DNA of 28,946 nucleotides from a virus. Lineage: Duplodnaviria; Heunggongvirae; Uroviricota; Caudoviricetes. How positions within the stretch are numbered: the stretch's first letter is position 1; each line of letters starts with the position of its first letter. Position numbers and translations under genes: made by a program. This document shows positions 21,735-24,998 of the stretch, piece by piece. Under the pieces are notes generated by a model that did no database searches, had not been told where the DNA came from, and saw only the letters and a list, made by a program, of their open reading frames with translations. The DNA lies in the IMG/VR virus record IMGVR_UViG_2617270968_000004, one strand, 5' to 3'.

Positions 21735-21956
21735 ATGGGATATTCAGCTGCTAAAGTGTCCACTCATATTGAGCTTGAGAAAAACCGTGGTTACTGGCGG
21801 GCAAAAGGGTTTGATCGTGATAGTTGTCAACTGTCATTATCGCGCGGTGAAGAGAAAATAGAACGCACGCGTGGTCGCTGGCGTTTCTATGACGAGAACC
21901 ATAAACAGGTAAAGGCAGAGCCGATCCTGTACACTTTACTTAAAACCATTATCTGA
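21735..21956 (+). CDS. Hypothetical small protein between loxP and cre
   Basis: 73-aa ORF with strong SD (GAGGTG, 5-nt spacing), ending 8 bp before cre; basic, no recognised motif. Confidence 0.3.
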   Translation: MGYSAAKVSTHIELEKNRGYWRAKGFDRDSCQLSLSRGEEKIERTRGRWRFYDENHKQVKAEPILYTLLKTII

Positions 21957-21963
21957 GTGTTAA

Positions 21964-22995
21964 ATGTCCAATTTACTGACCGTACACCAAAATTTGCCTG
22001 CATTACCGGTCGATGCAACGAGTGATGAGGTTCGCAAGAACCTGATGGACATGTTCAGGGATCGCCAGGCGTTTTCTGAGCATACCTGGAAAATGCTTCT
22101 GTCCGTTTGCCGGTCGTGGGCGGCATGGTGCAAGTTGAATAACCGGAAATGGTTTCCCGCAGAACCTGAAGATGTTCGCGATTATCTTCTATATCTTCAG
22201 GCGCGCGGTCTGGCAGTAAAAACTATCCAGCAACATTTGGGCCAGCTAAACATGCTTCATCGTCGGTCCGGGCTGCCACGACCAAGTGACAGCAATGCTG
22301 TTTCACTGGTCATGCGACGGATCCGAAAAGAAAACGTTGATGCCGGTGAGCGTGCAAAACAGGCGCTGGCGTTCGAACGCACTGATTTCGACCTGGTTCG
22401 TTCACTCATGGAAAATAGTGAGCGCTGCCAGGATATACGTAATCTGGCATTTCTGGGGATTGCTTATAACACCCTGTTACGTATAGCCGAAATTTCCAGG
22501 ATCAGGGTTAAAGATATCTCACGTACTGACGGTGGGAGAATGTTAATCCATATTGGCAGAACGAAAACGCTGGTTAGCACCGCTGGTGTAGAGAAGGCAC
22601 TTAGCCTAGGGGTAACTAAACTGGTTGAGCGATGGATTTCTGTCTCTGGTGTAGCTGATGATCCGAATAACTACCTGTTTTGCCGCGTCAGAAAAAATGG
22701 TGTTGCCGCGCCATCATCCACCAGCCAGCTATCAACTCGCGCCCTGGAAGGGATTTTTGAAGCAACTCATCGATTGATTTACGGCGCTAAGGATGACTCT
22801 GGTCAGAGATACCTGGCCTGGTCTGGACACAGTGCCCGTGTCGGAGCCGCGCGAGATATGGCCCGCGCCGGAGTTTCAATACCGGAGATCATGCAAGCTG
22901 GTGGCTGGACCAACGTAAATATTGTCATGAACTATATCCGTAACCTGGATAGTGAAACAGGGGCAATGGTGCGCCTGCTGGAAGATGGCGATTAG
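21964..22995 (+). CDS. cre: Cre site-specific tyrosine recombinase
   Basis: 343 aa MSNLLTVHQNLPALPVDATSDEVRKNLMDMFRDRQAFSEHTWKMLLSVCRSWAAW...; catalytic-region motifs (HSARVGAARDM, GGWTNVNIVMNY) and an adjacent loxP. Confidence 0.97.
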   Translation: MSNLLTVHQNLPALPVDATSDEVRKNLMDMFRDRQAFSEHTWKMLLSVCRSWAAWCKLNNRKWFPAEPEDVRDYLLYLQARGLAVKTIQQHLGQLNMLHRRSGLPRPSDSNAVSLVMRRIRKENVDAGERAKQALAFERTDFDLVRSLMENSERCQDIRNLAFLGIAYNTLLRIAEISRIRVKDISRTDGGRMLIHIGRTKTLVSTAGVEKALSLGVTKLVERWISVSGVADDPNNYLFCRVRKNGVAAPSSTSQLSTRALEGIFEATHRLIYGAKDDSGQRYLAWSGHSARVGAARDMARAGVSIPEIMQAGGWTNVNIVMNYIRNLDSETGAMVRLLEDGD

Positions 22996-23012: not shown

Positions 23013-23029
23013 ATTGCTCTAATTCTTTG
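23013..23029 (+). promoter_or_regulatory. C1 operator (ATTGCTCTAATTCTTTG)
   Basis: First 11 bp exact match to consensus; lies between cre and the next gene. Confidence 0.5.
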
Positions 23030-23045
23030 ATATTTATGGTGACAT

Positions 23046-23357
23046 ATGAGAAAGGATTTCAACATCGACGGAAAATATGTAGTGCTGTCTGTAAGCACTA
23101 ATATTCAGTCGCCAGCCGTCATTGTCACCGTAAAGTTGAGCGATAGGATGCCTGATATCGACTCGATATCTGTTGCGTTCCCCGTTAAAAGCATGCGGAG
23201 TGCTGAACATTTTGTGATGAATGCAACGGAGGAGGAAGCGCGGCGCGGGCTTACTAGAGTGATGGCGGAATTTGGCGAACTCCTGGGTAAGGTAAACAAT
23301 GCCCTTTCAATCAGTTCAGCAAGGTCCAAAGCGTTAACAGCTTCCATGATGAAATAA
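23046..23357 (+). CDS. Hypothetical protein (cra-like, cre-associated position)
   Basis: 103-aa ORF directly downstream of cre. Confidence 0.45.
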   Translation: MRKDFNIDGKYVVLSVSTNIQSPAVIVTVKLSDRMPDIDSISVAFPVKSMRSAEHFVMNATEEEARRGLTRVMAEFGELLGKVNNALSISSARSKALTASMMK

Positions 23358-23383
23358 AAAAAAAGCCTGGCAAGGAGCCAGGC
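23355..23383 (-). terminator. Terminator-like hairpin oriented for minus-strand transcripts
   Basis: Stem GCCTGGC/GCCAGGC (loop AAGGA) preceded on the plus strand by A10, which is a U-run after the hairpin on the minus strand. Confidence 0.4.
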
Positions 23384-23490
23384 TGCACAAAAGAGCGGGT
23401 TTGTATTCCGCATCCAATCAATCAAGAAGGAGTATAGCACACAGGTACTGAAGTAAAAAAATGTGATTCGCGATAAAAAAAATACCTACC

Positions 23491-23507
23491 ATTGCTCTAA
23501 TTGATTG
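23491..23507 (+). promoter_or_regulatory. C1 operator (ATTGCTCTAATTGATTG) with adjacent -10 TATAAT (23509..23514)
   Basis: First 11 bp exact match to consensus; -10 hexamer immediately downstream. Confidence 0.55.
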
Positions 23508-23575
23508 ATATAATTTAACCGCAGTTTTTGTCAACTACGAAGACGTTGCTATTACTACACTCCTTGACATCATTG

Positions 23576-23599
23576 GCGGCCATTAGGCCGCTTTTTTTT
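23576..23599 (+). terminator. Intrinsic terminator/attenuator hairpin 5 bp upstream of the ref start codon
   Basis: Stem GCGGCC/GGCCGC (loop ATTA) followed by T8; ref has no obvious SD. Confidence 0.5.
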
Positions 23600-23604
23600 G
23601 CCAT

Positions 23605-24165
23605 ATGAAAACAATCGAACAAAAACTTGAACAGCGCCGCGAGTGGCAGAAGGCAGCCAGAGAACGAGCGATCGCTCGGCAACGGGAAAAGTTGGCTGAC
23701 CCCGCCTGGCGAGAATCGCAATATCAGAAAATGCGGGATTCTATCGACCGCCGTATCGCTAAACAGAAAGAGCGCCCACCAGCCAGCAAAACGCGGAAAA
23801 GTGCGGTAAAAATAAAATCTCGTGGCTTGAAGGGGCGAACACCGACGGCGGAGGAACGGACCATCGCCAATGCTCTTGGCACTCTCCCCTGCATTGCCTG
23901 CTACATGCATGGAGTAATATCTGAAGAGGTGTCTCTGCACCATATCTCCGGTCGTACCGCGCAGGGTTGTCACAAAAAGCAATTGCCCCTTTGTAGATGG
24001 CACCACCAGCATGCAGCACCGGCTGAAGTAAGAGAAAAATACCCCTGGCTGGTCCCCGTTCATGCCGATGGTGTGGTTGGAGGCAAGAAAGAATTCACCT
24101 TGCTGAACAAGTCAGAGATGGAATTGCTGGCTGACGCCTATGAGATGGCAAACATCATGCACTAA
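23605..24165 (+). CDS. ref: Ref (recombination enhancement function; HNH-family endonuclease)
   Basis: 186 aa, the P1 Ref length as I recall it; basic N-terminal region and HNH-like Cys/His core (CIACYMHG...HHISGRT...CRWHH). Confidence 0.8.
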   Translation: MKTIEQKLEQRREWQKAARERAIARQREKLADPAWRESQYQKMRDSIDRRIAKQKERPPASKTRKSAVKIKSRGLKGRTPTAEERTIANALGTLPCIACYMHGVISEEVSLHHISGRTAQGCHKKQLPLCRWHHQHAAPAEVREKYPWLVPVHADGVVGGKKEFTLLNKSEMELLADAYEMANIMH

Positions 24166-24316
24166 TAAATATATTATTTTTAATCTGAAATAATTGACAA
24201 CTGACAAGTGACTTCAGTCAGAATCATCACATGCCCGGTACGGATGGATCCCTTTTCAAATATTCCATGGACGGCACAGTCTGAGTACCGGGCGCTACCT
24301 TCAGTTGTATTGCTAA

Positions 24317-24341
24317 GCCGCCGCTGGTGGCTTTTCTTTTT
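24317..24341 (+). terminator. Terminator-like hairpin plus U-run between ref and mat
   Basis: GCCGCCGCTGGTGGC hairpin followed by TTTTCTTTTT, ending about 12 bp before the mat SD. Confidence 0.4.
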
Positions 24342-24353
24342 GTAGGGGGAGCT

Positions 24354-24998
24354 ATGGATAAGAAAATATGCGTTGTTTCGATGAACGTCGGCAAACCGGC
24401 GTCAATGACTGCTGCATGGATCAACAACGAGCTGATAATGGCTGAGCGGACCAGATACCCTGAACGCCGCCGCGACATGGAACTCCAGCTGCTGCGCGAA
24501 TTGCGAGAAAAAGAGGAAAAGGGTTTTATCGTGCTGGTGGAAGAGGAAAACAGCTTTATTACTGGTCGAGTTGGCCAGCGTGTAAGGTTGCGCGATCCCT
24601 TCATGAACGGCAGGCCGGTACTAATTGAAGCAATGCAGATTTACAAGGAGTTGGAACGCCAGAAAGCGATCAAGTTACCGCGCAAGGAATCCGGCAAATA
24701 CATCCTCCACCAAAGCATCTTCGATTCCGAACACGATAAAAAAGGCGATGAGTTTTTCAACATCAACTGGAGCGAAATAACGACAGAGCATGTTCTGACG
24801 TTGTTATGCTGCTTCGCAACAGAATACAACAACGTGGTAAGCGCAGACTACATCAGGACAATGACAGACACCGTTACTAAACAAGACAACGAATATTCAC
24901 CATATGAGCCATTTGTAAATATGATAAAAGCATTTTATCGGATGGAGCTCACTAAAGTTCCTCAAGGTAAATTAACAGGTAAGGATAACATCTTTTAA
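24354..24998 (+). CDS. mat: Mat-like protein (maturation control position in P1)
   Basis: ORF with AGGGGGAG SD before ATG 24354 (track ORF 24327..24998); positioned after ref as in P1. Confidence 0.5.
   Translation: MDKKICVVSMNVGKPASMTAAWINNELIMAERTRYPERRRDMELQLLRELREKEEKGFIVLVEEENSFITGRVGQRVRLRDPFMNGRPVLIEAMQIYKELERQKAIKLPRKESGKYILHQSIFDSEHDKKGDEFFNINWSEITTEHVLTLLCCFATEYNNVVSADYIRTMTDTVTKQDNEYSPYEPFVNMIKAFYRMELTKVPQGKLTGKDNIF

Follow-up and report, generated by a model that had tools for sequence, protein, structure and literature searches.

The ref gene in the window, which is the whole stretch of 28,946 nucleotides that was analysed, is preceded by a leader ending in an intrinsic terminator hairpin, located between a C1-controlled promoter and the start codon. 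We consider it probable that this hairpin acts as a leader attenuator, with the added roles of shielding ref from upstream read-through and holding the toxic nuclease at a low level; this reading is preferred because no other plus-strand terminator lies between ref and the genes upstream of it. The original prediction had placed an attenuator downstream of a C1-controlled promoter, and it is supported here by the orthology of the promoter P2ref and its operator Oref with those of P1 and by selection on the hairpin as a structure, as seen from its invariant stem and compensatory pairs. Attenuator control of P1 ref was reportedly proposed by Windle, Laufer and Hays in 1988 (J Bacteriol 170:4881), and the idea is already known since it was put forward for P1 38 years ago. 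From the hairpin being the sole terminator in the leader, we infer that the attenuator of 1988 is the hairpin described here. The additions made here are modest and consist of comparative support for the hairpin structure across P1-like lineages and of the dual role as an insulator.

The window represents a P1-like prophage or plasmid carrying cre, c8, ref and mat on the plus strand. The list of open reading frames together with the annotation of P1 (AF234172) placed cre at 21964-22995, c8 at 23046-23357 and mat 3' of ref, and the RecA-dependent HNH nuclease Ref of 186 amino acids is encoded at 23605-24165, as judged from its reading frame and homology to AF234172. The region shares 95-98% identity with the P1-type phages and plasmids RCS47, JL22, P1, P7 and SJ46, and across 951 bases comprising the 3' end of c8, the ref leader and ref the DNA identity to P1 is ~95%. 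On these alignments the element is the 5' leader of a P1-type ref gene. Its operator, -10 hexamer, leader, hairpin, U8 tract and ref start are all alike those of the regulatory region of P1 ref, with which it is orthologous, and no terminator feature is annotated within the ref region examined in AF234172. The position of the ref start is common to the P1 type, phage JK004 (ATG) and a Salmonella lineage (GTG). The tightness of ref repression matters for the biology of P1 and for the P1-like plasmids that often occur in Enterobacteriaceae, because Ref enhances killing by ciprofloxacin and blocks lysogeny (PMC4713147). The leader terminator would form a second layer of control besides C1 and H-NS.

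The promoter that feeds the leader is overlaid by the C1 operator Oref (ATTGCTCTAATTGATTG, 23491-23507, plus strand), which covers the -35 and the spacer, matches the 17-bp asymmetric consensus ATTGCTCTAATAAATTT at 14 of 17 positions and retains an intact core ATTGCTCTAAT. With up to three mismatches allowed, the consensus had 10 matches in the window where 0.2 were expected. One of them is the site at 23491, the orthologue of the Oref annotated in P1, which AF234172 describes as a monovalent C1-controlled operator that controls ref. The C1 operator predicted at 23491 is thus upheld by both its consensus match and its annotated orthologue, and the -10 hexamer TATAAT predicted at 23509 is present there and corresponds to the annotated P2ref of P1. 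P2ref comprises a -35 element CTACCA with three of six matches (23486-23491, plus strand, by homology to AF234172 1957-1962) and a -10 region TGaTATAAT (23506-23514, plus strand, as read from the sequence and by homology to AF234172), in which TG at 23506-23507 ahead of TATAAT (23509-23514) makes an extended -10 in the window allele, where P1 has GCTATAAT. TATAAT was unchanged in 81 of 81 P1-type loci, and 6 of the 17 positions of Oref were variable across them. Binding of H-NS to the 5' regulatory region of P1 ref at CGATAAA has been reported by EMSA and ChIP (PMC4713147), and this motif is present in the window at 23471-23477 (plus strand).

Two further observations were made around the operator. 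In L035 and one other IMG/VR locus, unrelated G+C-rich DNA takes the place of Oref's left half and of all sequence upstream (junction ...GACGACCCCTAATTGGTTGCTATAAT), and C1 control of the ref promoter has probably been lost in both. Also, a 9-bp perfect inverted repeat, ATCAATCAA at 23417-23425 and TTGATTGAT at 23501-23509, joins a conserved block between c8 and ref with the right half of Oref and the promoter spacer, in sequence of low complexity.

The predicted leader RNA of ~79 nt would extend over 23521-23599 (plus strand), from an inferred start 7 nt past the -10 through the last base of the U-tract. With regard to the leader of ~80 nt originally proposed, the position of its terminator stands and its length depends on this start near 23521. 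Terminator scanning and folding located the hairpin GGCGGCC-ATTA-GGCCGCU at 23575-23592 (plus strand), in which the arms GCGGCC (23576-23581) and GGCCGC (23586-23591) enclose the loop ATTA (23582-23585) and an extra G23575-U23592 pair is possible, the scan counting seven pairs (six G-C and the closing G-U), a loop of 4 nt and a T-run. The T8 tract (U8 in the RNA) occupies 23592-23599 on the plus strand and is followed by a 5-nt spacer GCCAT (23600-23604, plus strand) with no Shine-Dalgarno sequence, by reading and by anti-SD scan. The stem GCGGCC/GGCCGC and the U8 tract predicted at 23576-23599 are therefore all in place. A stricter scan asked for six or more Watson-Crick pairs, five or more of them G-C, with seven or more T among the next 8 bases; 3 sites in the 28.9 kb of the window passed, where a dinucleotide shuffle yields 0.02. 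The hairpin folds at -13.3 kcal/mol, and its stem has a probability of 0.999 in the leader ensemble.

Its G+C-rich stem of 7 pairs, which falls within the usual ~5-14, its short loop, its U-run directly 3' and its structure kept in evolution are those of an intrinsic terminator, and it is located between the predicted transcription start and the ref start codon, as an attenuator requires. A role of the hairpin on the minus strand was rejected, as no T-run follows it on that strand. From the upstream genes through ref it is the sole plus-strand terminator-like site in the P1 type, JK004 and Salmonella lineages, and transcripts of cre and c8 would also have to end at it because there is no other plus-strand terminator before ref. 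It is sited 3' of the ref promoter despite room upstream of the promoter. A literature search for 3'-end mapping or transcript maps of P1 found none.

The P1-type comparison of the hairpin covered 81 loci, drawn from IMG/VR and the genome collection and including P1 itself and the window, and yielded 37 distinct operator-to-ATG sequences; the scan of genome contigs gave 3 loci. P1 and most of its relatives have a perfect stem of seven G-C pairs, GGCGGCC/GGCCGCC, at -15.0 kcal/mol, whereas in the window allele a C is missing from the 3' arm, which leaves six G-C pairs and a G-U pair at -13.3 kcal/mol. Across the 81 loci the 5' arm shows zero variation and the 3' arm varies at its base only, always in a G-U-compatible manner. 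Three of the four loop positions are variable (ATTA, ATCA, TAAA), with a diversity of 0.09 as compared to 0.068 at third codon positions of ref. The T-run has 7-10 T in the 37 distinct alleles and the spacer is GCCAT, GACCAT or ACCTT (5-6 nt). By this comparison the hairpin is under selection as a structure in the P1 type, its stem being essentially invariant and its loop variable. As a side observation on the window allele, its TG-extended -10 should strengthen the promoter, while the lack of one G-C pair in the stem should weaken the terminator.

Distant Ref genes were sought by tblastn protein search. The Ref of Cronobacter phage JK004 is ~65% identical, and JK004 and three Salmonella plasmids share the arrangement of operator ATTGCTCTAATAATTAT, TATAAT, leader of ~60 nt, hairpin, T-run and ref start; in JK004 the stop codon of the upstream gene adjoins the operator. 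Their hairpin, GACGGTC-TTCG-GACCGTC, is followed by T8 (T7 in one Salmonella plasmid). In an alignment of 15 distinct leaders the terminator helix was paired in 100% of cells, two of its seven pairs being altered on both sides in JK004 and Salmonella relative to the P1 type (G-C to A-U and C-G to U-A), and the RNAalifold consensus fold retained this helix alone. The two compensatory changes count as a single evolutionary event, as they fall on one lineage split. The P1 leader carries an extra ATCATTG ahead of the hairpin as compared to JK004 and Salmonella, and the lineages may differ by exchange of the whole hairpin and not by mutation within it; either way, the feature preserved in the aligned leaders is a terminator at the leader end. 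No leader terminator was found at Ref homologues outside the C1-operator context, i.e. in D6-like phages and plasmids, Klebsiella and Citrobacter plasmids and a Pantoea plasmid, and ref of D6 has an ordinary Shine-Dalgarno sequence. The search also revealed some E. coli plasmids (L092, NZ_AP027761.1; hits H44-H46) in which ref is reduced to its 3' two thirds (residues 61-186, ~80-83% identity). This remnant is truncated, unannotated and without the leader, and adjoins mercury-resistance genes.

In the attenuator and insulator model, RNA polymerase would start from TATAAT, near the predicted position 23521, once C1 leaves Oref, and would meet the intrinsic terminator after ~55 nt. The majority of transcripts would probably stop at the hairpin to give the ~80-nt RNA, and the minority that read through would carry ref. 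The same hairpin would block transcripts arriving from cre and c8 and insulate ref in the lysogen. Ref, which harms the host and blocks lysogeny, would be made at a low level only, on full derepression in lytic growth, and its translation from read-through mRNA would begin at an AUG devoid of a Shine-Dalgarno sequence, where the single-stranded U8-GCCAU probably helps initiation. The data reported for P1 fit this model: ref RNA rose 73-fold on inactivation of C1.100 and reached its peak slightly later than other C1-controlled P1 genes, and lysogenisation was 40-fold lower with Ref (PMC4713147). As the 73-fold induction of ref is within the range of other C1-controlled genes, the block at the hairpin would have to be leaky or relieved.

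For relief of the block by an RNA antiterminator regulating read-through into ref, the evidence from folding models is suggestive at best. Nascent-RNA folding gave a candidate antiterminator GUUGCUA (23545-23551, plus strand), predicted to pair with UGGCGGC (23574-23580) of the terminator 5' arm. The outer pairs of a predicted 5' stem-loop, GUUUUUGU/ACGAAGAC (23524-23544, plus strand, specific to the P1 clade), compete with this candidate, so that a 1:2 / 2:3 / 3:4 layout can be drawn. Against shuffles, the antiterminator complement gave p=0.28 in the window (GUUGCUA) and p=0.056 in P1 (GUUGCCA), and JK004 and Salmonella have a non-homologous complement ACUGUCA:UGACGGU with p=0.02-0.04; the complement is missing in the P1-type variants L043 and L052. 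The candidate of the window carries a C to U change relative to P1. Forcing the 3' arm to stay unpaired gives a leader fold of -11.5 kcal/mol, versus -21.4 kcal/mol with the terminator formed. The attenuators of trp, his and pyrBI likewise have an intrinsic terminator between promoter and first codon, with 1:2, 2:3 and 3:4 structures that can be drawn and of which 2:3 competes with the terminator, but they have a leader peptide, whereas the ref leader is without one and its alternative structure is much weaker than the terminator.

Other candidate elements of the leader were tried and rejected. The 5' stem-loop is not a conserved element, being broken in L043, L054, L052 and the JK004 and Salmonella leaders; 75.9% of its cells pair, and the RNAalifold consensus drops this helix. 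A leader peptide or translational coupling was rejected. The leader has neither ATG nor GTG nor a Shine-Dalgarno sequence, and indels occur in its T-run and spacer. A frame opened by TTG (23528) stops in the window at a TGA overlapping the ref ATG (ATGA), enters ref in frame in P1 and stops elsewhere in other alleles, so it is not conserved, and a leader peptide is excluded as the sensor. Rfam detected no riboswitch or other family on the plus-strand leader, its sub-threshold minus-strand matches lying over another terminator only. A long-range pairing of the leader 5' end AGTTTTTGT (23523-23531) with the ref codons ACAAAAACT (23619-23627) was discarded, since it gave p of about 0.5 against shuffles and is imperfect in P1.

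The start of ref at 23605 had been predicted to lack a Shine-Dalgarno sequence. An ATG is indeed present there, and within the 20 nt upstream no Shine-Dalgarno sequence was found, the best anti-SD duplex (-2.0 kcal/mol) being at background level against the window median of -2.4 kcal/mol. Such a start is not peculiar to ref here, because cre and c8 are also without a recognisable Shine-Dalgarno sequence (21944-21963 and 23026-23045; -2.5 and -2.8 kcal/mol, background level). By analogy with U-rich translation enhancers, the U8 tract may stand in for the one missing at ref. If the element were mainly translational, the hairpin and U8 would act as a 5' stabiliser and a U-rich S1-binding platform or standby site, and termination would be inefficient in vivo. 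Zhang and Deutscher reportedly found such a case in the E. coli rnd (RNase D) leader, where a hairpin with U8 upstream of the start codon is needed for translation. The two leaders share a G+C-rich terminator-like hairpin with eight U near a poorly equipped start, but they are not homologous, and the element was reported as a translation signal in rnd whereas a termination role is favoured in ref. A mainly translational role draws on the absence of a Shine-Dalgarno sequence at ref, on a U8 tract that ends 5 nt ahead of the AUG, on the T7-T10 with a 5-6 nt spacer kept in P1-type relatives and on A/U-rich enhancers that stimulate translation without a Shine-Dalgarno sequence (PMC3592434, whose references include the rnd study). 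However, JK004 and Salmonella keep the hairpin and U-tract at 10-13 nt from the ref start, two of the Salmonella-lineage plasmids even having a usable GGAG (-6.4 kcal/mol), and the strongest constraint falls on the G+C-rich stem, which a U-rich enhancer alone would not need. We regard this role as the main one only with low probability; it is compatible with attenuation.

The terminated leader of ~80 nt could instead be a C1-controlled small RNA, an option that the original prediction also named, and act in trans on host or phage mRNAs, with ref as a by-product of read-through, which we consider improbable. Its layout is similar to that of Hfq-binding small RNAs, with a terminator hairpin and at least 7 U (criterion of PMC5558911) after a single-stranded stretch, but that U-tract would be found in any strong intrinsic terminator. 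The CU-rich CUCC(U/C)UGAC lies directly next to the hairpin in all three lineages, whereas conservation between them is lacking over the 5' two thirds of the leader, and the plus-strand leader has no Rfam match. A precedent exists in phages, where an early-terminated transcript gives rise to a regulatory small RNA (PMC7547250). In that system, PR'-tR' and StxS of Stx phages, a promoter likewise has a terminator close by, so that by default a short RNA is made and the genes further on depend on read-through, but the promoter is constitutive and read-through is driven by the Q antiterminator, whereas the ref promoter is repressor-controlled and no antiterminator protein is known for it. By analogy with StxS, a stable ~80-nt leader RNA might be the default product of the ref promoter and act through the CU-rich stretch early after induction, with ref expressed by read-through only; we would give this version little credence too.

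It is equally doubtful that the hairpin is an insulator only, stopping transcripts from P2ref and from cre and c8 while the productive ref mRNA arises without the hairpin from P1ref, a second promoter annotated as predicted in AF234172 (2017-2044; window 23546-23573, plus strand): its start ~7 nt past the -10 would fall in the 5' arm and the hairpin is the sole plus-strand terminator 3' of c8, but P1ref is weak (-35 TTGCTA at 23546-23551 and -10 CATCAT at 23568-23573, 8 of 12 matches), stayed under the threshold of the promoter scan of the window, has a CATCAT segment that is missing from the JK004 and Salmonella leaders where the hairpin is kept, and does not overlap Oref although ref RNA is strongly C1-dependent. 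The -10 of P1ref ends 1 nt ahead of the hairpin, and transcripts that start inside the hairpin could bypass the terminator.

On the minus strand, a strong terminator, AGCCTGGC-TCCTT-GCCAGGCT with T9, was found at 23384-23364 just past the c8 stop; it is also conserved across P1-type loci. An extended -10 TGcTATACT lies upstream of it (23439-23431, minus strand), and together, within 23356-23439, they would give an intergenic RNA of ~68 nt with a modelled fold of -23.2 kcal/mol (z -3.2). This predicted RNA had sub-threshold Rfam matches only, and no such feature is annotated in AF234172.

Downstream of ref, the mat gene shows a seemingly similar layout of promoter, leader and terminator (24244-24356). 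Its leader hairpin, AAGCCGCC-GCT-GGTGGCTT followed by TTTTCTTTTT (24315-24333, T-run to 24343, plus strand), lies between Pmat/LPmat and the ATG at 24354. In the P1 lineage it is the first plus-strand terminator after that of ref, and its position relative to mat mirrors that of the ref hairpin relative to ref. The ATG at 24354 has a strong Shine-Dalgarno sequence GGGGGAG (-9.3 kcal/mol). The annotated mat start of P1, which corresponds to 24244 in the window, shares its frame with this ATG in just 35 of 79 loci, and in the window the long reading frame is broken, so the annotated N-terminal extension of 37 codons is probably not coding.
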